This document shows, piece by piece, positions 5,714 through 40,126 of a stretch of 41,663 bases of DNA. The notes beneath the pieces were generated by a model, which was not told the origin of the DNA, ran no database searches, and saw only the letters and a list, made by a program, of their open reading frames with translations. The stretch spans positions 1 to 41,663 of the forward strand of contig CAZLXA010000005.1 of the NCBI GenBank assembly GCA_964563715.1. The letters are read 5' to 3'. Each line of letters opens with the position of its first letter. Positions within the stretch are counted from its first letter, which is position 1. The position numbers and the translations under genes were made by a program. The stretch is from an uncultured Candidatus Saccharibacteria bacterium (GTDB taxonomy: Bacteria > Patescibacteriota > Minisyncoccia > Phycocordibacterales > UBA9973).

Positions 5714-6280
5714 TTATACTTCTTGTGCTAATCCAACTAAATTAAATTTAGTACTAGCTGCATGATATACAAATCCAAATGTAGTTCTCTTACTTGCTAT
5801 CAAAGTAGAAGGTAAAGCTAATCCACCTTTAGCTTCAAATTTATTACCATAAGTCAATGCTCTTGCTGTACCATCACAAGTTACAGATACTACAAACTTT
5901 TCTCCACCAACATAACTTGTTACTGTAGGATTAGCAAAATCTAAAGCTGCTGCTTGTGCTGTAATCTCATAGTAATCATAAGTAGTATAATCTAAAGTAA
6001 GAGTACCTGGAGTTCCTGCAATACTAGTAGTAGTATATATTCTAGGAGTATTTATGTTCTTTTTAAAATTAGTTAAACTAATACTTGCTAAATCAGCATT
6101 ATTAGATGTTGCTGAAAAAGGAATATAGTCTGCATCAGCAATTGCTCTTTGATTAGCAGCAATTAGATCTCCTATAGTTTCAGCAGTAGGTGGAGTAACA
6201 GATACACTTTCAGCTGGAATAACATCACTTTTCATCCAGAACCATCTACTTAATTGTTTTGCTAAATATTTTATATCCAT
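5714..6280 (-). CDS. Tail fibre-like protein
   Basis: 188 aa; C-terminal beta domain (ANPT...GEKF...DGTARALTYGNKF...LPSTLIASK) typical of fibre modules. Confidence 0.6.
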   Translation of the reverse strand: MDIKYLAKQLSRWFWMKSDVIPAESVSVTPPTAETIGDLIAANQRAIADADYIPFSATSNNADLASISLTNFKKNINTPRIYTTTSIAGTPGTLTLDYTTYDYYEITAQAAALDFANPTVTSYVGGEKFVVSVTCDGTARALTYGNKFEAKGGLALPSTLIASKRTTFGFVYHAASTKFNLVGLAQEV

Positions 6281-6286
6281 AGTTTA

Positions 6287-7678
6287 TTATGTTAATGTTG
6301 TACTTAACCAGTTATCATTAGTAGATGTTAAATCAGTAGCATTACATACCCAAAGTTTACTACTCTCAAAGAATGTTTGTGCTTCTTCTCCAGGAGTACC
6401 ATCTACTCCACCTGATAAAGCTGTAGCACTTCCAGCCCAAGATAAGTTAGTTCCACTTTTTCTAATGTTTGTACCAGTACCTATAATACCTTTAGTTTTA
6501 TATGTACAACTCATTGTAGCTGCTGTAAGTTTAGCTGCTGTACAAGTAGGATGTACTTCTGTTAATGTTCCATATTCAGTACCTGGTGTCCCATTATCTG
6601 CAATAGCTGCAACTAAATTATCAATAAATGTTTCAGCTGTAGTACAATAAATATCATTAGCTGCTTCTGGATCAATTCCTCCACTTAGTTCAGTTGCTCC
6701 TTCAAACCATACACTAGCTACATCATCTAGACTTTTAGCTAAAGCTATATCATTTCCTGCAAAACCTAATGTTTTAGCTGTTATTGTTACATTTTGAGTA
6801 TCTACTTTACTAGCTGAAACTGTAGTATGTGCAACTGTTCCTGTACCTACAACTCCTGCACTATATCCAGTATTTATTGCAATAACTAAGTTATTAATAC
6901 AAGCACTTGTACCACCACCACGATAAACATCATTTGCTGCTTGTGCATCTATACCACCTGTGAAATAATCTCCTTCTGTATCCCATGATAAATTAACACA
7001 ATCTAATAATCTAAAAAAACTGTTGCCTGCAAATCCTACACTATTAGCTGTTATTGTAACTACAAATGCAGAAGTATTAACTGCTGTTACTGCAACATCT
7101 GGCACTGCTGTTCCTGCAAAATAATCAGATCCTGCAATACCTGTTCCATTAATAGCTTTGAATAATCTGGTCATTGTAACTTCTGCTGTACTAATAGCAA
7201 TATCATTAGCTTGAGAAGGAGAGTCTTTTAATCTATATACTCTAGTGCCAATAGTTACTGTATCACCATCTGTAGGGGCAGTTTCATCACTGGTTAATAC
7301 AGCAGAAGCAGCAACTCCAGCACCTAAAGCATCTACTCTAAATTTATAAACTACTCCACCTATTGTAATAGTATCACCTTCTAATGGATTAGAGTTTAAA
7401 TATAGATTCTTACTAGCTGCCACACCTACTCCTAGTGCATCTAATCTAGCTTTATAGGTTACATCGTCTATAGTTACTGTATCACCTTCAGCTGGAGTAT
7501 TAGATACTGTTAATACTTTACTAGCTGCTACTGCATTAACTGGAGTAAATATAGGTAATATAACACTAGATTCTATTTCAGATGGTAATTGTTCTACATC
7601 TGTAGATAATGTAGTAATCTGTTCCTGTAAGAGTTCTATATTTGATTTAGGGAATTTCCTACTAAGTTTTGTTTTCAT
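6287..7678 (-). CDS. Virion protein with three nested repeats of a GDTVTI..V.Y / NL..AIN / G..GN / SGG.D domain
   Basis: 463 aa; three N-half repeats followed by three C-half repeats. Confidence 0.7.
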   Translation of the reverse strand: MKTKLSRKFPKSNIELLQEQITTLSTDVEQLPSEIESSVILPIFTPVNAVAASKVLTVSNTPAEGDTVTIDDVTYKARLDALGVGVAASKNLYLNSNPLEGDTITIGGVVYKFRVDALGAGVAASAVLTSDETAPTDGDTVTIGTRVYRLKDSPSQANDIAISTAEVTMTRLFKAINGTGIAGSDYFAGTAVPDVAVTAVNTSAFVVTITANSVGFAGNSFFRLLDCVNLSWDTEGDYFTGGIDAQAANDVYRGGGTSACINNLVIAINTGYSAGVVGTGTVAHTTVSASKVDTQNVTITAKTLGFAGNDIALAKSLDDVASVWFEGATELSGGIDPEAANDIYCTTAETFIDNLVAAIADNGTPGTEYGTLTEVHPTCTAAKLTAATMSCTYKTKGIIGTGTNIRKSGTNLSWAGSATALSGGVDGTPGEEAQTFFESSKLWVCNATDLTSTNDNWLSTTLT

Positions 7679-9787: not shown

Positions 9788-10267
9788 TTAAACAGGATAT
9801 AAAACAAACCAATTATTACTTACAAGTAGGGGTGCTAAATTAGTATAACAATAGTATGTATACTTGTATCCGTTACTAAGAGTTACATCTCTTTCTACTG
9901 TAAAATTAAAATTCATAGGAAAAAAGTTATCGGGAGATGTACTATTAGAAAAATGATCATAATCTGGAAAATCTGGATTCTTTTCTGGTATTAAAACCCA
10001 AGCATAAACCTTTTGAGTAAACAATGTAGCAAACCATCTAGTATACCAATCTAAATACACAGCAGAATATACAGTTGACCCAGGAGGATAATAAGTACTA
10101 GGACTAAGAGTTATTGCTGCACCTTTTCCTGATGCAGAAGACCCAGCTACACCTAAAGTAAAAGCATTTTCTTCTCCTCTTGATCCAAAAGGAACAGTAT
10201 TATAAAAGAACCCAATATATGCAGTTTCTCTAATACCTGCATGTAAACCATAAGGAATTGGTAGCAT
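9788..10267 (-). CDS. Putative tail-fibre-associated protein
   Basis: 159 aa, aromatic-rich, between two fibre genes. Confidence 0.5.
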   Translation of the reverse strand: MLPIPYGLHAGIRETAYIGFFYNTVPFGSRGEENAFTLGVAGSSASGKGAAITLSPSTYYPPGSTVYSAVYLDWYTRWFATLFTQKVYAWVLIPEKNPDFPDYDHFSNSTSPDNFFPMNFNFTVERDVTLSNGYKYTYYCYTNLAPLLVSNNWFVLYPV

Positions 10268-10268
10268 A

Positions 10269-12230
10269 TTATAATAAATTAGCGAATAATGGAGAAACTA
10301 CACCATACATAACACCATTGAGAATTATACCACTATAGGTAAGCCCCGAACCAGCGTTTAATGTTATAACAGTTTCCCCAACTCCAGGTATTATAGTAGT
10401 GTTATGATTAAACTTAACTGTAATATTAGTAGTAGTTGTTAGTACAGATATAATAAAACTAGTTCCATTATAAGAAGATAAAGTTCCAGATTCTGCAATT
10501 AATATAGTTAATAGACCAGTTCCAGAAGTTACTTCATAAAAGAAAGTATTATTTAAAGCAAGAGAGGGAGTTCTTGTAATACCAGTACAAGCTATAGTTA
10601 ATTCAGTAAGAGGAGTAACTTTAGGAGAACCTGTAAATACAGCAGAAGCTAATGTTTTATTAGTTAAAGTTTGTGTTCCACCAACTGTTACAGTACTTGT
10701 TGTATCTGTTCCTGCTGTACCTGATATTCTTATATCTTTACTAGACGTTAAATAAGTAACTGCTCCTGTAAGAATCACATTTCCATTTCCAAAATTTATA
10801 GTACCTGTAGCTTTAATATATGTATTATTAAGAGCAACAGTACCAGACCCTATATCAACTACTCCGTTAGAAGCAGGCATAAATGCTACACTAGCTACTA
10901 TATTTTTAGTTTCTAGAGAATCAGTAGCCGCATCATATTTTAAATCAGCATTTGTTTTAGCTGCTAAAGTTCCAGTTACACTATTTACAAATAACGGAAA
11001 ACAAGTAGTATCAGAAACTTCATCAGCTACAACAATAGTAGAAGCTGAACCTACAGCTGAATCTGTATAAGCTATAGTTTTTCTAGTTGCTGCACTAGGA
11101 GTAAAATATAAATTCGTTCCATCATACTCCATTGCCCCATTCAAAGGAGTTGTAAGATTTACTCCTGCTGTAAAATACAAAGGTCCTGTTCCTGCTGTGG
11201 CTGTTCCAGCTGCTAATGTTATTTTTTTACCAGTAAGAGTTTGTGTAGCAGTAGTAGATACTACAACTATACTTCCTGTTGCTCCAAAACTCAAACTAGT
11301 GTTTGCAGCAATAGTGTGAGTTAAAGAAAATGCCCCACTTAGTATAATCGATCCACTGTTAGGAATAGTTAATGTTCCATTTCCACCTGTAGCTGTAATT
11401 GCTAATCCATTTATTTTAGTAGCAGTAGCTATACCTAAAATAGGAGTTATTAAAGTTGGACTAGTAGCTAATACATTATCACCACTTCCAGTATTAGTGA
11501 CACTTACTAATTGGCTTGAACCATCTGTAGCAACAGCTGAACTAGAAGTTAATCCAGAAATAATAAGGTTCCCATTTATCTGTCCTCCACCACTTATCTT
11601 GCTTATAAGACCATCATTTATAAAATCATCTTTATAATAGGTATAAGCAGAAGCTGCTTCTCCAGTACCACATCTATAAAAATGTCCTGAACCACTTGTA
11701 TCTGCTGCATTATAAACAACATACACAATAGTTCTTTGAATAGGAATGTTTGATTGAGGTAATTCTGGGTATCTTGTAAAAGTAGTACTTGTTCCAGTTG
11801 CATTAGAAATATATACTCCATTTTGTTTACCCACTGATGTTTGATGCATTACTAAATATAATCCACCTTTAACAAAACTAGCAACATAAAAATCTGTATT
11901 GGGTATACTTCCAGCTATATTAGTAATAGCATTTTTACTTCTACCAAGAACAGTAATTGTAGGAGCATATTCTTCTACATAATGCCAATCAGATGGACCA
12001 GTAGGAGTTGCTGTTAAAGTATATAATTTATATATAATACCAGTTGTTACATCAATAATTCTAGCATTATTCCAAAGTAATTCAGCTGATCCTGCATTAC
12101 CAGCAGTTTCTATCAAAGCTGAAATAGAAGCATAAGTTGAATCCCCACCAACAGTAGTTAAAGCATCTACTGGTGCAGTATATTGTGTTTGTACAAAAGG
12201 AGCTGATGTTGTTATGAAAGTATTAGGCAT
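10269..12230 (-). CDS. Tail fibre protein
   Basis: 653 aa, Thr/Gly/Ala-rich; TQTLTNKT-type shaft motifs, GAMEYDGTNLYFT, Q..VGKQNGVY. Confidence 0.75.
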   Translation of the reverse strand: MPNTFITTSAPFVQTQYTAPVDALTTVGGDSTYASISALIETAGNAGSAELLWNNARIIDVTTGIIYKLYTLTATPTGPSDWHYVEEYAPTITVLGRSKNAITNIAGSIPNTDFYVASFVKGGLYLVMHQTSVGKQNGVYISNATGTSTTFTRYPELPQSNIPIQRTIVYVVYNAADTSGSGHFYRCGTGEAASAYTYYKDDFINDGLISKISGGGQINGNLIISGLTSSSAVATDGSSQLVSVTNTGSGDNVLATSPTLITPILGIATATKINGLAITATGGNGTLTIPNSGSIILSGAFSLTHTIAANTSLSFGATGSIVVVSTTATQTLTGKKITLAAGTATAGTGPLYFTAGVNLTTPLNGAMEYDGTNLYFTPSAATRKTIAYTDSAVGSASTIVVADEVSDTTCFPLFVNSVTGTLAAKTNADLKYDAATDSLETKNIVASVAFMPASNGVVDIGSGTVALNNTYIKATGTINFGNGNVILTGAVTYLTSSKDIRISGTAGTDTTSTVTVGGTQTLTNKTLASAVFTGSPKVTPLTELTIACTGITRTPSLALNNTFFYEVTSGTGLLTILIAESGTLSSYNGTSFIISVLTTTTNITVKFNHNTTIIPGVGETVITLNAGSGLTYSGIILNGVMYGVVSPLFANLL

Positions 12231-15320: not shown

Positions 15321-16562
15321 TTATTGTTTTTGTTCTGTTTGAGGAAGTTGTCCAGCAGCAGCAAAGTTCTTAGCTGCATATTGTCCAGTAGCTTTATTAA
15401 AAGCTAAAGTAACAATATCATTATGAACACTAGTTGGTAAATCTGTAGTAACATTGTACTCATAATTTACACTACAAGGTTCTTCAATATATGTTGTTTC
15501 AATAGAGTTTATATATGTATTAGAATCACATTGAACATAAACTTTATTATTTTTAATTTCAGCAATCAATGATTCTTGTGTCAAAGAATAAGAATACTCT
15601 TTAATATGTTCTATATCCTTTGAGTAAATCAATCTAACAGGAATATATCTTGTTTCAATAACAGATACTCCAGTTCCTAAAGTAATAGTTGATGTATTAG
15701 TACATCTAAAAACAACTCCAATATTTGTACCATTATAACCTCCAACAGAAGTTAAATCTGGACAAATTAGACCTGTACCAAGTGAATATACTCTATAATA
15801 TTTATCTTTTATAAAAGTAACACTACCAGATAAAACATTACCAGTATCTATATTGGATTTAATTGAAAGTAAATGAAAAAGCCCATTGTTTGTTAATGGG
15901 ATAAGTTGAACAGCTTCTATAAGCTTAGCTTTAATTCGTTTATATCTAGGTTGAGTAACCGGACTAGTTCTATGAATTACTGTATCAACCTGATTATAAA
16001 ACCATACATTAGCAGTTAGTTCTTGTAGGTAGGAATGATTAGGAGTTAATACTTGATTACCATTTGCTATATTTCCAGGATTCTCTACTATATAAGTGTC
16101 ATTATCATTAACTGAAATTGAAGTTCCTGCTATTGCTGCATATCCAAAGTCAGCTACAAACTCTTCACCAACTGCACTAACTGTAGAACCCCCATAATCT
16201 GATAAATCTTCTCCAACACCTGCAACTACTTTATACTTAACTCCATCATATAACCAACCATTTTGAACAACTATACCATCCTCATTAACTGTATTAGCAT
16301 AAGGAAGATTAAATACAACTTGATTACCTAATCTGCTATAAATAGGATTAACATAAGACTTGACCAGAGAATAGATAGGTATTTGATTATTAACTAAATA
16401 TTCACTAAAAGAAGGATTAGAATTAATATACGAATTTACAAAATCAACAATTGCAGAATTTAATATAAAATCTCTACCCTCTGGATCAAGTCTGTTAAAA
16501 AGATTAGAATTAAGCTGTTGTAAGCCTAATTCTAATCCTATATGTAGTTGCTTAACTGTCAT
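15321..16562 (-). CDS. Head-tail connector / ring protein with inserted domains
   Basis: 413 aa; N-terminal MT..QLHI.L...LQQ.NS....LDPE..D.ILN.A and C-terminal TYI..P..V......DLP..VH.DIV.LA as in crAss-like ring proteins. Confidence 0.6.
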   Translation of the reverse strand: MTVKQLHIGLELGLQQLNSNLFNRLDPEGRDFILNSAIVDFVNSYINSNPSFSEYLVNNQIPIYSLVKSYVNPIYSRLGNQVVFNLPYANTVNEDGIVVQNGWLYDGVKYKVVAGVGEDLSDYGGSTVSAVGEEFVADFGYAAIAGTSISVNDNDTYIVENPGNIANGNQVLTPNHSYLQELTANVWFYNQVDTVIHRTSPVTQPRYKRIKAKLIEAVQLIPLTNNGLFHLLSIKSNIDTGNVLSGSVTFIKDKYYRVYSLGTGLICPDLTSVGGYNGTNIGVVFRCTNTSTITLGTGVSVIETRYIPVRLIYSKDIEHIKEYSYSLTQESLIAEIKNNKVYVQCDSNTYINSIETTYIEEPCSVNYEYNVTTDLPTSVHNDIVTLAFNKATGQYAAKNFAAAGQLPQTEQKQ

Positions 16563-18531: not shown

Positions 18532-20004
18532 CTAAACACTCTTAGATAACCAGAATGATGTAGTAGGATTAGTAAATACAATACCTTTAGAGGTAATGAT
18601 TTCATAGTATGCAATATCCTTACGTGTAGAAATCATTTGATTAGGCATTGCTCCCCATACAGCAGGTAAAGGTGACATACCTTTATAAATACCAACTTGA
18701 TGTTCTCTACCTTTAGCTGCAACAAGTGAAATATTCCTACCCCCATTATCAGTTGCAGAGTGATCTAATGATACAAGGTTATAAGAAAATGCAGGATAAC
18801 CGTTAATCATATTTCCAGCAGCTCTATCAAGTTCAGCAAGTGGACCATGATTAAAGAACTTACTTTCAATAACACGTACAATCTTACCACTAATTGTTTT
18901 ATAAGCATTGAAATACTTACCATAAGTAAGACTTCCACCCATATCCTGAATCATAGCAGAACCAAGAGATTCGAAATATGAAGAACCATTAGCTGATGCT
19001 AACATTAAAGCATTGTTGAACTCTCTAATACCACCAGCACCTGTATAAAGGATAATTTCATCAGGAGTTGCATCAACTCTATTATCCAATACAGCCATAA
19101 GTGTTCCATCAATAACACTAGTTGTTAAAGTAGAATAAGTTGAGTAGTTACCTACTTCATTAAGAATCTCTTTAACACCAGGAGCCATAGGTACAGGTTC
19201 ACCTGTTTCATCATCTATAGTAGTAATTCTACCATTTTCATCTCTATTGTATTCACCCAACCAAAGGTTACTTTCTTCAAGTAATCTACGATCAAGTTCA
19301 AATCGTTTCATATCATAAGGCATCCATTGATTAGTAGTACCTCCACCTTCCATAGGTAGCTGAATGTTCATAGCCATGTTGCTAACATTACCAGCTAATC
19401 CTTTAGAATAACGGTGATATCCAAACTGAGAAGTCCATTCTCCAGGAAGCATTGTATTATCCCTGTTACCATCAGATTTAGATGCAGGAATTGTAGGAAC
19501 ACTTAATACCCAATATTTACCAGCAGCAAACTGAGTATAAGGAATACCACTAATTGCACTAGAACCAGTAGCTGATACTGTATAATGCCAAAAACCATCA
19601 GATTGACGACCATGTTCTGTTTGAATACGAAGCCTATAATCACCATTAAGTGACATAGCACCATATTGTTTAATGAACATTCCATTTTTCATTTTAATCC
19701 TAAAACTACCACCACCAACACCAAGTGTAATAGAACCAATAGCTCCAGCACATTCAGATGTATGTTTCATTCTACCAAACACCTTCCATGTGAAAGTTGT
19801 ATCGTTTAATTGTTTTGGAGTTTTACTAGTAATAAGACCTTCTCCCATTGTTTTAGTTAACAGTGGAAACATATCCGAATCTTTACCGTACATAAATGTC
19901 ATGTTGATGTCTAATTCAACAGGATCAATCAATTTATTACGATAAAGAAGATTCTCATCAGCAAATTTAGCTGGATCATAAGTAACTGTGCTTATTTCTC
20001 TCAT
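18532..20004 (-). CDS. Major capsid protein (crAss-like)
   Basis: 490 aa; FPLL..T.G, I.DE.TGEPV....GV.E, LYTG.GG..EF..A, YG.YF..YKT..G motifs; follows portal and scaffold genes. Confidence 0.85.
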   Translation of the reverse strand: MREISTVTYDPAKFADENLLYRNKLIDPVELDINMTFMYGKDSDMFPLLTKTMGEGLITSKTPKQLNDTTFTWKVFGRMKHTSECAGAIGSITLGVGGGSFRIKMKNGMFIKQYGAMSLNGDYRLRIQTEHGRQSDGFWHYTVSATGSSAISGIPYTQFAAGKYWVLSVPTIPASKSDGNRDNTMLPGEWTSQFGYHRYSKGLAGNVSNMAMNIQLPMEGGGTTNQWMPYDMKRFELDRRLLEESNLWLGEYNRDENGRITTIDDETGEPVPMAPGVKEILNEVGNYSTYSTLTTSVIDGTLMAVLDNRVDATPDEIILYTGAGGIREFNNALMLASANGSSYFESLGSAMIQDMGGSLTYGKYFNAYKTISGKIVRVIESKFFNHGPLAELDRAAGNMINGYPAFSYNLVSLDHSATDNGGRNISLVAAKGREHQVGIYKGMSPLPAVWGAMPNQMISTRKDIAYYEIITSKGIVFTNPTTSFWLSKSV

Positions 20005-21757: not shown

Positions 21758-24088
21758 TTATTTGTTTTTATTTGTTTTTACTTTAGCTATTTCTTTTTGT
21801 GCTTTAATCTTTTTATCTTCTGCATTAGCTTTAAGTGCAGCTTGAGCAGAAGCAATACGTTCTCTAGATTCATTTGATAAACGTGCTGTTTCTGAATCCA
21901 TTTGAGAATTAGTCATAGATGTATCATTATTCATAGATTGAATTGTAATATCATATTCCTTCTGAATAACTAAGTTATTAGCATCTACATCTCCTTGATT
22001 AAGTATTTCATCTATCTTATAATTATGCTGAGTATCAAGTTGTTCTTTAGCAGCAGCTAATTGCTCTTGTACCATTGAGTTCTTACGTTCTTCCATATCT
22101 CTTTCAAACTGTTCTTTAGCTGCCTTTAATTTAGCAATAACATCTTGTATCTCTTCAATGCTATCATGTTTAACAGCAGCTACTCCTTGATCAAAGTCAC
22201 CATTCTGTGCAGCAGATAATGCCATCTGTCTAATCATATCAAGTTTCTTATCTACAGTTATTCCATTCTCAACATGTACTCCATAAGACCTACGAAATGT
22301 TTCAAATCCATTAAGTTCTACTTGTGTAATGTTTCCTTCTGCATCAAACATAGTATCTGATACACCATCTATATAGATGTACTTTGCATAATCTAAATCT
22401 GTTTCATGTTCTATTTCAAGTATTTTTCTAAATATCTCTAATGCTAAAACACTACCTAGTTTAGAACGATATATATTCTGTTCTACATTTGCTACTCCAC
22501 CCCTTGTATCTACATTACCTAATCTATCAGAGTTAGAACTTACAGACTCTAATGCTCTTTTATTAAAGTATTGTTGAAGGTTGATAAGTGTTGATATATA
22601 TTTATCAGTTGATGAACCTTGTATTAAACGAATACCTTGAACAGCAAGTTGTAAATCTACTTTTGCATCATCATAAATAATACGACCATCTTTCATCATA
22701 TAGAAAGTCTTTTCTTTAGCAGTACCAGCATTATCCTCTGCAAGTATAGATTTAGGTATAATTAGAATATCATCTTTATATTTATTAAGTGCCTTTTCAA
22801 TATGTACCATTAACATACTATCTATAACTTGATATGCTAATAGCCGATAAGCTATAGGATTAGTAAGTTTATTCTTTAACATATACTGTTTACCTGTTAC
22901 TGGAATCTTACCTGGTCTTTGAACTAGATGTTTCTTTGGTCTAGTATATAAACCAACACCGGCTCCCCCAAATCTACAACCTTCCCAAGATTCAGCTATG
23001 ATATGAGTAGTTAATGAAATATCTCCATAACTAGGTTCTAGAACATAATCATTAGATACAATAGTTGTACGTTCTTTACTTGTTAGTTGATCAATATATC
23101 TAAGTTCTTTAACTTTTCTATATGCTTGAAATACAATAGTATATTTCTTAATTATACGATCACTAGAAGTTAAGTTAGGATCAACACTAATTGGAGTATC
23201 TATACTATACCAATCTAGTTTAGTTCTTTCGGTTATAAGATTAATTGGCGCACTTATAGTACCACCTAATTTATCTCCCATATGTAGATTATGAATATAA
23301 TCCAATTGAGAATTATCTAAATCATTAACATGATTATTATAAAAGTCTTCCCATGACATACTTTCAACAAATACAAAAGCTAGTGAATCATCTACAAAAT
23401 CATTATCACCTAAATATGGAAAAGCATACTGTGGAGATAGTACAGTCTTTATAAAATCACCATCTTTAAATGTACGATAAACATAACATTCTTCTGTTGT
23501 TAACCAATTATAATAAAGTTGTAGTCTATAATAATCAAAGTTCTGTTTCTCATTTATATAGTTTAGAAACCTTTGTGCTTTAAGAGATTCTTGCTTAATG
23601 AACTTATCCTTTTCTTGTTGAATAAGATTGTTTAGTTCTTCTGCTGATGGTGGTTCTGCTTCTTTATTCTCTAATATTTTAGCTAAGGTTGTTTCCATAA
23701 TTACTTTTAGCTTCTCTTTTAACATATCATTCTGTAATGAAGCTAAATCAGGGTCATGGAAGTTAACACTTACTTTATATGGTAACTCAATATACTCTCC
23801 CATTCTATTCTCTATAATAGGAGTTATAATATTTGTATTACGAATATTATATGGATATTTAGCATTTAAATCTTCTAAATCAGAACTTTCTATGTTAAAA
23901 GGTTTAAGTAGATAGTCAAGTGTGCCGAAATCTACTTCTCCATTTGCTGCATTTATTCTTATTTGTAATTCAGATGATTGTCTAAGTGATACACATTTCT
24001 CAATCCAATAATCATAAGTAGGAACATACCATTGTTCTTTAAGTTTAGATTTATCGGATACTGTTTGATCTGGAAGATAAGTACTCAT
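21758..24088 (-). CDS. Portal protein (crAss-like)
   Basis: 776 aa; LPDQTVSD..K, IRN.NII.PI....MGEY, long C-terminal coiled coil; directly after terminase. Confidence 0.85.
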   Translation of the reverse strand: MSTYLPDQTVSDKSKLKEQWYVPTYDYWIEKCVSLRQSSELQIRINAANGEVDFGTLDYLLKPFNIESSDLEDLNAKYPYNIRNTNIITPIIENRMGEYIELPYKVSVNFHDPDLASLQNDMLKEKLKVIMETTLAKILENKEAEPPSAEELNNLIQQEKDKFIKQESLKAQRFLNYINEKQNFDYYRLQLYYNWLTTEECYVYRTFKDGDFIKTVLSPQYAFPYLGDNDFVDDSLAFVFVESMSWEDFYNNHVNDLDNSQLDYIHNLHMGDKLGGTISAPINLITERTKLDWYSIDTPISVDPNLTSSDRIIKKYTIVFQAYRKVKELRYIDQLTSKERTTIVSNDYVLEPSYGDISLTTHIIAESWEGCRFGGAGVGLYTRPKKHLVQRPGKIPVTGKQYMLKNKLTNPIAYRLLAYQVIDSMLMVHIEKALNKYKDDILIIPKSILAEDNAGTAKEKTFYMMKDGRIIYDDAKVDLQLAVQGIRLIQGSSTDKYISTLINLQQYFNKRALESVSSNSDRLGNVDTRGGVANVEQNIYRSKLGSVLALEIFRKILEIEHETDLDYAKYIYIDGVSDTMFDAEGNITQVELNGFETFRRSYGVHVENGITVDKKLDMIRQMALSAAQNGDFDQGVAAVKHDSIEEIQDVIAKLKAAKEQFERDMEERKNSMVQEQLAAAKEQLDTQHNYKIDEILNQGDVDANNLVIQKEYDITIQSMNNDTSMTNSQMDSETARLSNESRERIASAQAALKANAEDKKIKAQKEIAKVKTNKNK

Positions 24089-24109: not shown

Positions 24110-26467
24110 TTATTTTAAACCCATTTGACTTGCTACTGTATTAGTACTATTGTTAGCATTTTTATTTCTTGTTTGTTTTAATTTAAAGGCTCTTCTATAA
24201 AACATCCATACTCTAAGAGCAGATAGTCTATCAACGTTAATACCTTTTGAATATTTAGCTGCTTCTAATAAGGTAGGAAGATCTTTAACTCGTTCTATTA
24301 TATGGAAATATGATCCATCTTCTCTAACAGATGTTACATCATAAAACCATTCGTTTAGATATTTAAGTCCTTCTTCTGCTCTTTCTCCTGAACCAATTAC
24401 TATACCATATCCTGTATTAGCTGGTGCTTCTTTACCTTGTAGTATATAAGTTGGGTCTTTAACTATACGATTAACTTCACCCCATGACCTAAAATTAGAA
24501 ACAATAGTTCCTCTATCAGTTTCAGGAACTATCTTTGCATTATATAGATAAGATGTATCAAGAACAAACTTATCACAAGTTTCCATCTTATCTGTTCTAC
24601 CAGCATAGGATAACATTATTGTATCTGGTGGTATTCCATAAGCATTAGGTAAAGTTATAACATAGAAAGCATTAAGTGAATGTCTAATCTTTATTTCCTT
24701 GCTATCTATATCTTTTCCTATTGTATCATAACATATAGTATATACATCATCTGGAACATTTCCATTTTGATCTCTATAAGGTGGTGACCACATTCTCATA
24801 CAACCATGAGGATCATCATCTGGAAGAATAGGAAAGTTCTCAATGTATTTATGTAGTAGTTTCTTATAAGTAGGGTCTTGTTCAGCTAGTTCTTCTAATT
24901 GACTAAGTGTTTTAAACTTATACTTTTCATCTGAATCTTTAATAATAAATCCATCTTTATAAACTAGTTCTTTACGTTCAGCTCTAATTCTTTCTATATG
25001 GTTTGTTAATATCCCACTACTAAATAGATTATCAGTAGATGAAGAAAATGCTTCAGATGGTCTATTGGAGAATTGAGAACAATGTTTTAAATATCGTTTA
25101 GTTGATGCCCCGCCAGTAGCAGCAGCTTTAAGTGCTCTTTCATTATTAGATATTCCAATTGCATATCTATAAATACTATTACCATCTTTATCTAAAGAAA
25201 AGGAATCTTGATATTTACCTTGTAGTCCATACCAATAAGGAATAAACCAACCAACCTTACGATGTCTAGAATTAAAATCCCATATATTTTCAAATGGCAT
25301 AAAGTTATAAACATCAACAGAATTAAAGTTACGTTCAAATTGTGCCCATGAACCTTCTTTAGAACCACCTGTTCCACCAGCAAATATAAAACCAGTTAAA
25401 TATGCACCAGTTGTAGTTGTAGGAACAGTAACATCCATTACATCTTCAAAGTTAGGGAAAGCACTTAATTCATCAAATTTGATTTTATGTGCATCTTTAC
25501 CAATAGCTGCATCCGGATTATTCATAAAAGATAATGCTAGAATAGTACTTTGTTTACCAGCATCTGTCCCATCTTTACGTTTATATCCAACTTTAAGTTC
25601 TTCTATATCCTTTTTAAGTAATCCCCTACCTTTAGAATTACGATGAAATGGAGTATGAAATTCATAGAACTCAAGTTGTAGTTTAGCCATTGGAGATATA
25701 GACCTACCTTGAGTTACATATTTCTTATCATAAGCCCCATGTATAATAGTTGTTCCAGAGTGAAGGTTTACATCATTTGCTGAATCAATAGCTTCTACAT
25801 AACTCATACCTTTACGTCTAGACTTTAGAACAATCATGTGATAACCATTAGCTTTAGCAAACTCTTTAGCTTTTGATAACCAATATTGTGAATCTATAAA
25901 AAGAGGAGTAGAATCTTTCTTCTCTGCTCCTATCGAACCATCTGAAACACTATGTTCATCAAGTAATCGAATCTTTCCATAGTTTATAAAGTTATATTGT
26001 TCACCTGTTATTCTTAAAGGTTTAAGTAAACTATAAGCAGAATCAGAATCTCCTTTCTTTAACAGGAAGTTATATTCTTCTATATCTCTATGATGAAGTT
26101 TACAATTAGCAGTATATCCTGTTTTACGTCTGAATTGTTCTCTCTTTCTAAATTGCCTATGTTCAACTGTATCTTCTTTAAGAAAAGTATAAGTTTTATT
26201 CTTTTGATAAAATAGTGCAGCTTCTCTAAGTCTATCAGTTCTCTTAAATATAAAATTAATATTTGGTAGAAATCCACCACTCTCACCAATTAACCAATCT
26301 CCATCTGGATCATAATAATACTTACCAGTTTTAGGATTAATTACTTGTGATGCTTTAGTGTATTGTGATTTAGGTTCTAGTATATATCTATACAGTGGTT
26401 CTGTATTATCTAGATTATTAAAATCAAAATCCAAATATTCATCTATATTATAAGTAGTTCTAATCAT
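24110..26467 (-). CDS. terL: Terminase large subunit
   Basis: 785 aa; LKSRRKGMSY (Walker A-like), KIKFDE (Walker B), GGTGG, nuclease-domain ICYD and VDRLSA. Confidence 0.9.
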   Translation of the reverse strand: MIRTTYNIDEYLDFDFNNLDNTEPLYRYILEPKSQYTKASQVINPKTGKYYYDPDGDWLIGESGGFLPNINFIFKRTDRLREAALFYQKNKTYTFLKEDTVEHRQFRKREQFRRKTGYTANCKLHHRDIEEYNFLLKKGDSDSAYSLLKPLRITGEQYNFINYGKIRLLDEHSVSDGSIGAEKKDSTPLFIDSQYWLSKAKEFAKANGYHMIVLKSRRKGMSYVEAIDSANDVNLHSGTTIIHGAYDKKYVTQGRSISPMAKLQLEFYEFHTPFHRNSKGRGLLKKDIEELKVGYKRKDGTDAGKQSTILALSFMNNPDAAIGKDAHKIKFDELSAFPNFEDVMDVTVPTTTTGAYLTGFIFAGGTGGSKEGSWAQFERNFNSVDVYNFMPFENIWDFNSRHRKVGWFIPYWYGLQGKYQDSFSLDKDGNSIYRYAIGISNNERALKAAATGGASTKRYLKHCSQFSNRPSEAFSSSTDNLFSSGILTNHIERIRAERKELVYKDGFIIKDSDEKYKFKTLSQLEELAEQDPTYKKLLHKYIENFPILPDDDPHGCMRMWSPPYRDQNGNVPDDVYTICYDTIGKDIDSKEIKIRHSLNAFYVITLPNAYGIPPDTIMLSYAGRTDKMETCDKFVLDTSYLYNAKIVPETDRGTIVSNFRSWGEVNRIVKDPTYILQGKEAPANTGYGIVIGSGERAEEGLKYLNEWFYDVTSVREDGSYFHIIERVKDLPTLLEAAKYSKGINVDRLSALRVWMFYRRAFKLKQTRNKNANNSTNTVASQMGLK

Positions 26468-36452: not shown

Positions 36453-36830
36453 ATGAAGATTACATCAGAACAAGTAAGAGAAGGTAAACTTAGTCCAAAG
36501 GATTATAAGTGTCCTATGTGTGGTAGTCCTATGAAAGTAGGAAAGAACTTTGGTTATTTGTTTAAATGCAATTGGGGTTTATGTAAATCTAGAAAATATG
36601 GAATACTGTGGTTCCTTAATGGAGAAGCTTATTCTGATCGAGTTGATCTATCATTATTTCAAAACACAACTCCCATAGGTAGTCTAGCATTTAAACAATC
36701 TCTTGATAAATCAACAACTAGAACATATAATCTAATTCTATTTAAACTAAAAATTACCATTAATACAATTCATAATTATAATGGTAAGTATTTAGGTGAT
36801 AGAATTAATTATGGTATTAGTTGGGAATAA
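36453..36830 (+). CDS. Zinc-ribbon protein (125 aa)
   Basis: CPMCGSPM...FKCNWGLC; ATG 36453 directly follows the previous stop. Confidence 0.65.
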   Translation: MKITSEQVREGKLSPKDYKCPMCGSPMKVGKNFGYLFKCNWGLCKSRKYGILWFLNGEAYSDRVDLSLFQNTTPIGSLAFKQSLDKSTTRTYNLILFKLKITINTIHNYNGKYLGDRINYGISWE

Positions 36831-36847
36831 CAAGACTGCGCCAATGG

Positions 36848-36878
36848 ATAATATTCATTTTAAATTTTCCGTTGGGCT
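36848..36878 (+). promoter_or_regulatory. Bipartite motif ATAATATTCATT-N6-TTTCCGTTGGGCT, copy 3, 100 nt upstream of the tmRNA
   Basis: 27/31 identical to the copy upstream of the capsid genes. Confidence 0.6.
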
Positions 36879-36884
36879 GTATGA

Positions 36885-36916
36885 ACAAACAATTACAAAC
36901 AATTACAAACAATTAC
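36885..36916 (+). repeat. Tandem repeat ACAAACAATT x3.2
   Basis: Perfect 10-nt units read directly. Confidence 0.9.
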
Positions 36917-36978
36917 TATCAGGCATTTATATCACAAAGAACTGTAAATGCTTGATAGTTTAATAAATCAAAACAATC

Positions 36979-37307
36979 GGGGGTGACATGGTTTTGATAT
37001 TCTATAAGTACAATTTGATCTCATGCAAGCAGTTATGCTTTGAAATAACAAACAATGTAATTGGCAACACTTACAACGTAGAAGATATGATGAGTATCCG
37101 TACAAGTCATATTGCATCTAGTAACAAGGTTATTGAGATGCCTTCCTTTAAGCAAGAAGTTCTGTTAGCTGCTTAATATTTTGTTAGTTTTGAAAAACTA
37201 ACTGGTGGACATAGACTGTTGAGTTAATAACAGCCCCAAATCAAGCATGTATTAAAAGATTAGAAAGGAAAATAGGATACACGAGGGTTCGAATCCCTCC
37301 ACCTCCA
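36979..37307 (+). ncRNA. ssrA: tmRNA (329 nt), predicted tag GNTYNVEDMMSIRTSHIASSNKVIEMPSFKQEVLLAA at 37063-37176
   Basis: Acceptor stem GGGGGTG/CACCTCC with G3:U70, discriminator A; T-arm GAGGG-TTCGAAT-CCCTC; D-like loop ACATGGTTTTGA; P2 pairs TATTCTAT/ATAGGATA and CATGC/GCATG; internal frame ending LAA-stop. Confidence 0.92.
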
Positions 37308-37363
37308 GATCTATCAAGTAACATACCTCCACGTGGTATAGATCGGGTAATGCTAAATGTTAC
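37308..37363 (+). ncRNA. Minimal HDV-like (theta-type) self-cleaving ribozyme
   Basis: P1 GATCTAT 37308-14 / ATAGATC 37338-44; J1/2 CAA; P2 GTAACAT 37318-24 / ATGTTAC 37357-63; P3 ACC/GGT; L3 TCCACGT; P1.1 GG 37345-46; no P4; GCTAA junction with putative catalytic C37353. Confidence 0.88.
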
Positions 37364-37397
37364 AGTATTTATCAAAAACTAACTAAACATTAAACAA

Positions 37398-37670
37398 ATG
37401 AAACAACAATTTGAATTTACAACAAAAGAAGCTGCTGATTGGATATGTAAGAGATTACGTATTAAACCTTTAAGTCCAGATAAAAATGGAGATTTTAACG
37501 TTAGACAACAGTCAACTATGAAAAGAGTAAAAGCTTTAATTGAAAAAGATTTAATTAATGCTAGATACTCTAATTCTAATAGAGTAATTCACGAAACAGA
37601 TAATCATACTCGGATGGATATATGGATAGGAGATGAATTATTAACAGTAAGGTGCTATAAAACGAATTAA
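37398..37670 (+). CDS. Basic protein with possible HTH (TTKEAADWI)
   Basis: 90 aa; excisionase/MerR-like N-terminal pattern. Confidence 0.5.
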   Translation: MKQQFEFTTKEAADWICKRLRIKPLSPDKNGDFNVRQQSTMKRVKALIEKDLINARYSNSNRVIHETDNHTRMDIWIGDELLTVRCYKTN

Positions 37671-37688
37671 CCAATAGGAGATATTAAA

Positions 37689-37919
37689 ATGTTTAAAATA
37701 GAAAAGAATCAAACAATTAAACAAAAACCAGATCAAAGATCACAACTTACTATTGAATTAGAACAAACATTAGATTCTCTAAAAGAAGGTGAATCTTTTA
37801 TATTTCCACGAAATAAGCTATTTACTTATTATCGAGTAGTAGCAAAAAGATCTGATTCAATTACATTTAAAAGTAATAAAATAAGTGATACAGAAGTAAG
37901 AATATTTAAAGTATCATAG
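37689..37919 (+). CDS. Small putative DNA-binding protein
   Basis: 76 aa; FKIEKN...L.EGESF...VRIFKV pattern common in phages; AGGAGA leader. Confidence 0.55.
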   Translation: MFKIEKNQTIKQKPDQRSQLTIELEQTLDSLKEGESFIFPRNKLFTYYRVVAKRSDSITFKSNKISDTEVRIFKVS

Positions 37920-37944: not shown

Positions 37945-38029
37945 TTCTCATTAGTTTAATGGTGAACAATAGTTGGTTCTGCTTGTAACTTTCCAGCTAT
38001 AAGACTAGGTTCGATCCCTAGATGAGAAG
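37945..38029 (+). tRNA. tRNA-like RNA with elongated anticodon arm (identity undetermined)
   Basis: Acceptor TTCTCAT/ATGAGAA, T8-A9, D-arm GTTT-AATGGT-GAAC, 8-bp stem ATAGTTGG/CCAGCTAT with a 16-nt loop, variable loop AAGA, T-arm CTAGG-TTCGATC-CCTAG, discriminator G. Confidence 0.8.
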
Positions 38030-38061
38030 CAAGATTTAGTATTAATTAAATAAATAATAAT

Positions 38062-39268: not shown

Positions 39269-40126
39269 ATGGAAACAAGTATTTATGTGTTAAGAGATCC
39301 TATTACTAATGAAATTAGATATGTAGGTTGTACTAAAAATATTGAGCAACGTTATAAAGCCCATGTCAATAAAGCTAGAGATTATAATACTCCTAAAAGA
39401 GAATGGTTAGAGTCTCTTAGAATACAAGGTTTAAAGCCAGTACTAGAAGTTGTAGAGATTGTAAATGATAATTATCTAGAAAGAGAAAAATATTATATAC
39501 AATTGTATCGAAAACAAAATTGTAATCTTACTAATACTGGAGATATTGATTTTAATGGAAATCAAACAGCTTTTAGAACAGGTCATAATCTTACTAAGGT
39601 TGTAGCTCTTTTATTAGATGGAAGTTATTATAATAGTTATGATTCTGTATCTTTAGCTGCTAAACAAAATAATACTAGTGATAGCAATATATCCTCAGCA
39701 TTATGTAAAACAACAAAAACAGCTGTTAAATTAATTTGGCTTTATGAAGATGAATATTATGATTTAACTAAAGAAGATATTGATGCTCTAGTTTTTAATG
39801 CTAATGATAATTCTTTAAAAGGTAATAAAGATACTCAATTCGAAGAAGGTCATATTGCCTGGAATAAAGGATTAAATATTAAACTAAAGCCTAATAAAAA
39901 TGTTCATCAGTATAGTGCAATAACAGGTTTATTTATTAAGACTTGGAATACAGCCAAAGAAGCTGGGGATTCATTAACCATTAACCTTGAAGCAATAGGT
40001 CAATGTGCCAGAGGTAAATCTAAAACAGCAGGAGGATATATATGGAATTATAATAAATATGAATATATAGATCCTCCTAAATATATTGGTAAAACTAAAA
40101 CATCAATAATTAATAACTTAAAATAA
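39269..40126 (+). CDS. Free-standing GIY-YIG homing endonuclease with NUMOD1-like DNA-binding domains
   Basis: SIYVL.DP....IRYVG.T.....R...H; LERE.YYI; NLTN; C-terminal VHQYS..G.FIKTW....EA.......I..C..G..KTAGGYIW. Confidence 0.88.
   Translation: METSIYVLRDPITNEIRYVGCTKNIEQRYKAHVNKARDYNTPKREWLESLRIQGLKPVLEVVEIVNDNYLEREKYYIQLYRKQNCNLTNTGDIDFNGNQTAFRTGHNLTKVVALLLDGSYYNSYDSVSLAAKQNNTSDSNISSALCKTTKTAVKLIWLYEDEYYDLTKEDIDALVFNANDNSLKGNKDTQFEEGHIAWNKGLNIKLKPNKNVHQYSAITGLFIKTWNTAKEAGDSLTINLEAIGQCARGKSKTAGGYIWNYNKYEYIDPPKYIGKTKTSIINNLK

Follow-up and report, generated by a model that had tools for sequence, protein, structure and literature searches.

A phage tmRNA gene directly followed by a predicted theta-type self-cleaving ribozyme in a distant crAss-like phage

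The stretch of DNA analysed here (the window, 41,663 nucleotides) spans contig C5 completely, one of the 48 contigs of an 808-kb bin, and its genes fall into two blocks of opposite orientation. The minus-strand block harbors ORFs that match phage structural families in PHROGs, among them the major head protein (18532-20004, E 2e-66), the portal protein (21758-24088), the large terminase (24110-26467, E 3e-104) and a baseplate protein. The plus-strand block runs from 32303 onward, consists of many small ORFs without a known family, and has a GIY-YIG endonuclease, a dNMP kinase and ThyX at its end. The endonuclease, a GIY-YIG/NUMOD homing-endonuclease-like ORF (39269-40126, +), separates the small early ORFs from the dNMP kinase-ThyX pair. 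The terminase shares 35-37% identity with those of crAss-like phages of Bacteroides and Flavobacterium, and therefore the contig is taken, on sequence grounds, to be part of the genome of a distant crAss-like phage. ORFs of at least 90 amino acids in genetic code 11 occupy 82.4% of the contig, and reading TAG or TGA as sense adds 1.4 points at most, so that the phage appears to use the standard code. A first-pass annotation of the sequence had proposed both the phage origin and the standard code; the structural genes and the crAss-like terminase bear out the former, and the ORF coverage, which scarcely gains from recoding, the latter. A blastn search of 36900-37420 against 50,697 phage records gave no match, indicating that the region has no close sequenced relative among them.

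A tmRNA gene of 329 nt is located in the plus-strand block (36979-37307, +). The Rfam family RF00023 matches 36979-37310 (+) over its full model (positions 1-374) with 55.5 bits, compared with a gathering score of 47 (E 2.9e-19). ARAGORN misses the gene at its default settings and, at a lowered threshold (-ps90), places it at 36979-37307, bounds that are also reached by direct reading of the sequence, while RNA contigs, described below, extend over 36987-37307. The acceptor stem GGGGGUG/CACCUCC has 7 bp including a G3.U pair, the T-arm is canonical (GAGGG-UUCGAAU-CCCUC), and the 3' end reads CCACCUCC-A37307, the last base being the discriminator. The last three bases aligned to RF00023 are GAT, where CCA would stand, and thus the gene ends at A37307 without an encoded CCA, as the first-pass annotation had read it. 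The tag reading frame (37063-37176, +) comprises 37 codons, GNTYNVEDMMSIRTSHIASSNKVIEMPSFKQEVLLAA, and a TAA stop at 37174-37176. Its GGC codon at 37063 is aligned with the consensus resume codon of RF00023, which makes this the predicted, alignment-based resume point. The tag is long and ends in LLAA-TAA, a hydrophobic degron of the ...AA type that resembles the ends of ARAGORN-called tags of related loci. Both the full tag frame and the pseudoknot region are kept in this tmRNA.

Several other elements surround the gene. Three head-to-tail copies of the 10-nt unit ACAAACAATT (36885-36916, +), a repeat that could be regulatory or promoter-associated, precede the 5' end of the tmRNA by about 65 nt. 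The first downstream ORF (37398-37670, +; 90 amino acids) has no family match, and no terminator-like site was found between the ribozyme described below and this ORF, so that tmRNA and ORF are probably co-transcribed. Further downstream, at 37945-38030 (+), ARAGORN reports a 'tRNA-???' with a two-base anticodon. By eye, the acceptor stem of this element (TTCTCAT/ATGAGAA) and its T-arm (CTAGG-TTCGATC-CCTAG) are good, but its anticodon arm consists of a 7-bp stem and a 16-nt loop; Rfam reports no tRNA there at E up to 10. The element may be tRNA-like but aberrant, or may bear an intron. It was rejected as a second ribozyme partner, as the covariance model R1 (see below) finds no theta match after it. 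The idea that the tmRNA is a host gene at the end of a prophage was also rejected, because the gene has phage-type ORFs on either side and differs from the tmRNAs of the lineage itself, and because no integrase family was found.

The nucleotide that follows the discriminator, G37308, is the first of a predicted minimal HDV-like ribozyme of the P4-less 'theta' type (37308-37363, +; 56 nt), whose predicted cut lies between A37307 and G37308. The assignment draws on a descriptor parse, the model R1, a sub-threshold match to RF02682 and covariation. The 5' strand of P1 (GAUCUAU, 37308-37314) pairs over 7 bp with AUAGAUC at 37338-37344, J1/2 is CAA in the parse, and the 5' strand of P2 (GUAACAU, 37318-37324) pairs with AUGUUAC at 37357-37363. 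P3 (ACC/GGU, 3 bp) closes the 7-nt L3 loop UCCACGU (37325-37337), and the 2-bp P1.1 joins C37329 and C37330 to G37345 and G37346; the alignment columns of P3, L3 and P1.1 are invariant. J4/2 (GUAAUGCUAA, 37347-37356; given as GTAATGCTAA in the descriptor parse) contains the putative catalytic C37353, which lies within GCUAA and whose column is at least 90% conserved in the alignment A1 and invariant in 24 tRNA-adjacent examples. P4 is absent, with only GUAAU between P1.1 and GCUAA. All of these elements (P1, P2, P3, L3, P1.1, the missing P4 and GCUAA) had been named in the first-pass annotation, and the parse recovers each of them at these positions. The first pair of P1 is G1-C37344 and not a G.U wobble. 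Among the 15 aligned sequences this pair is G.U in 10 and G-C in 5, G-C also occurs in several tRNA-adjacent rows, and a G-C opening appears in these alignments as common variation that does not disqualify the element.

Searches of the bin and of the window give a measure of how distinctive this fold is. An earlier structure-only descriptor was far too loose (358 matches in the bin), and its tightened version matched 127 of the 270,427 G positions in the 808-kb bin; once the L3 core (xxCxCG) is added to the structure, 37308 is the sole match in the bin. The family RF02682 (HDV-F-prausnitzii) matches 37308-37364 from end to end with 29.8 bits (E 0.0037 over 1.6 kb); the gathering score of 44 is missed because the P4 of the model is absent in the window. 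No other HDV-type Rfam family was found at E 0.01 in the same scan, drz-agam-1 giving E 1.5. Theta ribozymes were also collected by their core signature, with no condition on the upstream sequence, and 30 of them had G1 at most 2 nt from the 3' end of an ARAGORN-called tRNA; the covariance model R1 was built from 24 of these tRNA-adjacent phage ribozymes, the other six, which MAFFT misaligned, being dropped. R1 scores 37308-37366 at 60.6 bits (E 1.9e-14, on a rough calibration of E-values), the next match in the window reaches 13.5 bits, and nothing else was found with it elsewhere in the window or in the 808-kb bin. The descriptor and R1 thus uphold the original proposal of a theta-type minimal HDV-like ribozyme that starts at the first position after the tmRNA. 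The nested-fold energy is no better than that of shuffled sequences (z = 0.02), as expected for a pseudoknot, for which the nested minimum free energy is uninformative.

Conservation of the fold was followed in an alignment (A1) of the window with 14 sequences from the viral and metagenomic loci of the first junction pattern (see below), which were chosen with no requirement on P1 or P2; duplicates, rows repeating the ribozyme of another row, and locus L136 were left out. In A1, P1, P3, P1.1 and the T-stem are paired in all 240 of 240 cells. P1 is 100% paired in the 15 sequences, with changes on both sides in six of its seven pairs, and the covariation score is 0.706 compared with 0.19 in shuffles, none of 500 shuffles reaching 0.706. 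When the 3' partners are slid, pairing falls to 36-47%. P2 has 7-9 bp in each of the 15 sequences with its own partner, and a mean of 3.3 bp with swapped partners. A lack of covariation in P1 and P2 among homologues had been named beforehand as an outcome that would speak against the ribozyme, and the opposite was observed, as both helices covary fully across loci.

The pairing of a tmRNA with a theta ribozyme recurs in other phages. A junction pattern consisting of the tmRNA T-loop, N6, CTCCA, G, a gap and the L3 core was found in 6 viral and 18 metagenome loci, and a looser pattern in at least 110 unique sites. In at least 16 distinct viral or metagenomic junctions, the end of an Rfam-confirmed tmRNA coincides with position +1 of the ribozyme (L009, L010, L011, L013, L019, L024, L029, L049, L071, L073, L092, L108, L130, L133, L146 and L147); the tmRNA of L024 is barely above the cut-off (47.4 vs 47), and that of L014, tmRNA-like by eye, scores under it. 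Three further ARAGORN-called tmRNAs are followed by a putative ribozyme that has A in place of the initial G (L242, identical to L244; L243; L223), and whose P1 opens with an A1-U pair. R1 places a ribozyme at +1 in 15 of 17 tmRNA-ribozyme loci and in none of 8 tmRNA loci without a descriptor match; at L011 it detects a tRNA-adjacent copy as well, so that one phage uses the device for both kinds of RNA. Some of the tmRNA-linked relatives have a P4 (L010, L029, L049, L073 and L101). The contigs of these loci range from about 5 kb to 416 kb, and a tblastn comparison of 19 window ORFs with 21 tmRNA-ribozyme loci gave a single weak match, between the GIY-YIG ORF and L108, indicating that the flanks are not syntenic with the window. 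Locus L136 was rejected as a true junction, being a chance match in GC-rich coding sequence without the fold.

Other counts set the limits of this association. No theta ribozyme was matched after an encoded CCA, and the two junction patterns found no tmRNA-ribozyme junction in 185,579 species genomes. Nine ARAGORN-called tmRNAs of phage contigs that are followed by G have no ribozyme and carry terminators or other trailers instead, so that a phage tmRNA need not have the ribozyme. When one theta subfamily was sampled without bias, 32 of its 63 unique sites lay after ARAGORN-called tRNAs and a single one after a tmRNA, which makes the tmRNA pairing a minority use of a known device. Taken together, the results show the identity of the tmRNA and of the ribozyme and their junction at distance zero, along with a fold that is conserved and covaries in many unrelated phages.

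Some of the loci carry further RNA elements. In L131 (9154-9291), L141 and L143, a 79-nt gene consists of the tRNA-like domain (TLD) of tmRNA alone, with no tag frame, and has a theta ribozyme at +1; the one in L141 matches the Rfam tmRNA model with 48.2 bits over 82 nt. These TLD-only mini-tmRNA genes stand beside ROOL RNA and tRNA arrays, the ROOL RNA being within a few kb of the module in L131 and L141. GOLLD RNAs occur no more than a few kb from the tmRNA-ribozyme module in three unrelated phage loci (L010, 269-682; L049, 11355-11762; L073, 7898-8381).

The DNA sources of the stretch are freshwater metagenomes; the runs that share few words with it (X12-X24) have no bearing on habitat. Metatranscriptome contigs from four runs, corresponding to three samples of one freshwater study, were compared over 36700-37700. 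Contigs of 322, 322, 318 and 283 nt, with three mismatches each to the window, cover 36987-37307, 36987-37307, 36989-37306 and 36987-37269, respectively. Beyond 37307, the two contigs of 322 nt have one more letter, which does not align. Neither flank of the tmRNA is covered by an RNA contig in 36700-37700, where gaps in a 1001-nt stretch do not amount to evidence of absence; the uncovered flanks provide an internal control for carried-over DNA. The contigs thus give a hint, and only a hint, of a discrete, stable RNA that ends at the predicted cut, because they are assembled sequences from one study and do not show true ends or their cause; processing by host RNase Z or exonucleases would yield the same end at 37307. 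A second kind of RNA contig in the same metatranscriptomes (335-369 nt) shares only 37072-37099 and 37177-37200 with the tmRNA, and is probably a related tmRNA of another phage or strain.

Maturation of a CCA-less tmRNA calls attention to the enzymes encoded nearby. The window ORFs tested by Pfam or PHROGs, which represent 41.7 kb of phage and include several structural-module ORFs without a Pfam scan, yielded no SmpB and no enzyme for healing or for CCA addition. In the rest of the bin, contig C22 encodes a class II CCA-adding enzyme with an HD domain (5985-7556), which may belong to the bin organism rather than to the phage, and no DRB0094 RNA ligase was found in the bin. The bin organism is bacterial, and it is linked to the phage by binning. 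Neither SmpB nor a tmRNA other than that of the phage was found in the bin (89.6% complete), a gap that is most likely due to incompleteness; SmpB occurs in 18 of 21 searched genomes, and the bin is one of the three that lack it. In the relatives listed, the SmpB gene adjoins the tmRNA gene, and their tmRNAs are mostly CCA-less, with a terminator-like hairpin as trailer and no ribozyme, sharing only the T-arm and the acceptor with the tmRNA of the window. As a separate observation, contig C8 of the bin carries two ribosomal protein L20 genes 5 kb apart (10195-10512 and 15561-15878).

The element can be placed among several known systems. With RF02682 it shares P1, P3, L3 and GCUAA from end to end, but the P4 of that family has 15 positions compared with 1 nt in the window, and its score under the gathering value makes it no member by the Rfam criterion. 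Cellular tmRNAs are matured at their 3' ends by an endonuclease cut, exonuclease trimming and the addition of CCA where it is not encoded. The product required here is the same, a discriminator followed by CCA-3'OH, and the relatives of the bin organism also have CCA-less tmRNAs, whose trailer is a terminator-like hairpin in place of the ribozyme of the window. The CDS-less phage mini-tmRNA (the phage DS6A form, as cited in PMC11915505) is likewise a phage-encoded tmRNA derivative and resembles the genes of L131, L141 and L143, whereas the tmRNA of the window has a full tag frame and pseudoknot region.

The closest counterpart is that of the tRNA-associated theta ribozymes (Kienbeck et al. 2024, PMC10879173), described in the text of that paper as minimal HDV-like ribozymes of gut Caudoviricetes. 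They have the same P4-less double pseudoknot of about 56 nt, are phage-carried and, as in the window, their cleavage site abuts a CCA-less tRNA-like 3' end. The core signature of the window ribozyme, CCTCCACGTGG-N8-GGGTAANNCTAA, is that of the 30 retrieved tRNA-adjacent theta ribozymes. Four theta ribozymes of similar size are reported in the paper to self-cleave in vitro, their C-to-U mutants being inactive, and self-cleavage is proposed there to define tRNA 3' ends (PMC10879173). The published criterion places the cleavage site within 5 nt on either side of a tRNA 3' end (PMC10879173); in the window the predicted site is at distance 0 from the tmRNA discriminator, which lies within that range, though next to a tmRNA. 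In PMC10879173 the substrates are tRNAs, whereas here it is a tmRNA of 329 nt. The window comes from freshwater metagenomes, whereas the function is described in that paper as currently limited to mammalian gut phages, and its phage has no stop-codon recoding, which takes the device beyond recoded phages. The main text of PMC10879173 contains no mention of tmRNA, and no description of a tmRNA-ribozyme pairing was found in the literature searched, including passages of PMC8040213, PMC10085705, PMC11915505 and a 2026 preprint, in agreement with the first-pass annotation, which knew of none. Structure, core sequence and model score together identify the element as theta-type by its sequence, with the tmRNA partner as the new part. 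The pairing thus adds a tRNA-like substrate to those of a published tRNA-processing ribozyme.

The model proposed here is that the phage tmRNA is fused at its discriminator to a theta ribozyme, and that self-cleavage 5' of G37308 sets the tmRNA 3' end, a reading that we regard as probable. The tmRNA of the crAss-like phage would be transcribed together with the plus-strand genes, and the ribozyme would adopt its double pseudoknot of P1, P1.1, P2 and P3 while it is being transcribed or afterwards. C37353 would then catalyse the cut 5' of G37308, the products being a tmRNA that ends at A37307 with a 2',3'-cyclic phosphate, and a ribozyme with a 5'-OH on the downstream RNA; the tmRNA 5' end would be expected from RNase P. 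HDV-type cleavage is established to leave a 2',3'-cyclic phosphate, and therefore healing would have to precede CCA addition, so that a phosphoesterase would open and remove the cyclic phosphate before the CCA-adding enzyme and AlaRS act. HD domains of CCA-adding enzymes have phosphoesterase activity, and the HD domain of the class II CCA-adding enzyme is a candidate for this step. We infer in this way self-cleavage, healing followed by CCA addition, independence from host RNases and any benefit for the downstream mRNA.

The last of these points could also be the primary one, if an active ribozyme were selected for the sake of the downstream RNA. It would separate the tmRNA from the message and leave a structured 5'-OH end that resists 5'-end-dependent decay, the tmRNA 3' end being possibly made by host RNase Z or exonucleases. 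The probable co-transcription of the tmRNA with ORF 37398-37670, with no terminator-like site between them, agrees with this account, as does the ribozyme of L073, which ends 6 nt before the next tRNA and would thus be a spacer in arrays too; the lineage of the bin, moreover, makes its own CCA-less tmRNAs without a ribozyme. However, what stays constant beside the ribozyme is the tRNA-like 3' end that precedes it, at distance 0 in the 16 Rfam-confirmed and 3 A-start junctions, whereas the downstream context varies from an ORF in the window to a tRNA in L073, and in other loci the next Rfam tRNA is as near as about 190 nt (L011) or as far as more than 1.8 kb (L108). The RNA contigs, which cover neither the ribozyme nor the ORF, give no sign of a stabilised downstream RNA, and selection for the downstream RNA is considered unlikely.

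It has also to be weighed whether the cut product is meant to stay blocked, either as an unchargeable SmpB decoy directed against host rescue or as an RNA that is activated only once a healing enzyme appears. The ribozyme-linked tmRNAs keep full tag frames with canonical ...AA or ...VA ends, which argues for translation of the tag, and a CCA-adding enzyme with an HD domain is present in the bin. On the other side stand the cyclic phosphate left by the cleavage, the healing enzyme not found among the window ORFs tested and the TLD-only mini-tmRNAs that have the same ribozyme in L131, L141 and L143. In addition, PMC11915505 cites a phage tmRNA without a CDS that acts as an inhibitor of the host tmRNA, but the same ribozyme serves ordinary tRNAs that need charging, according to PMC10879173, and a permanently blocked product seems to us quite improbable. 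As for a chance resemblance or a dead relic, that is, a trailer without catalytic role, the RF02682 score under the gathering value and the unremarkable fold energy would agree with it. It is nonetheless extremely improbable in view of the sole match with the L3 core among 270,427 G positions, the 60.6 bits of R1, the conserved column of the catalytic C, and the full covariation of P1 and P2 across unrelated phages.

A bolder proposal, which we put forward as speculative and rather doubtful, is that the ribozyme makes the phage tmRNA start its life blocked, with a cyclic phosphate and no CCA. Rescue would then be gated by healing, or else the blocked RNA and the TLD-only minis would soak up SmpB and disable host trans-translation. 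Either way, a share of the 526 'isolated' theta ribozymes of the 2024 study would be linked to tmRNAs or mini-tmRNAs, forming a conserved phage module that extends from crAss-like to huge phages and into non-gut habitats.

Returning to 3' end formation by self-cleavage as the preferred model, a device known since 2024 as an RNA-only 3' processor of phage tRNAs is now found on a ribosome-rescue tmRNA, which extends the theta family beyond gut phages and beyond recoded phages. To our knowledge, tRNAscan-SE does not report tmRNA. The partners in PMC10879173 were detected by tRNAscan-SE only, a program that the paper does not describe as reporting tmRNA, and its text gives 526 theta matches without a tRNA, most of which lie in non-coding DNA at over 200 nt from any ORF; therefore tmRNA-linked cases could sit among these 'isolated' ribozymes. 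A tmRNA gene of 300-400 nt would look like the published isolated context, and may explain some of the 526. The pairing raises the biochemical question of who heals the cyclic phosphate before CCA addition, and, as a C-to-U point mutant should stop the maturation of the tmRNA, it would offer a handle on why phages carry tmRNAs.
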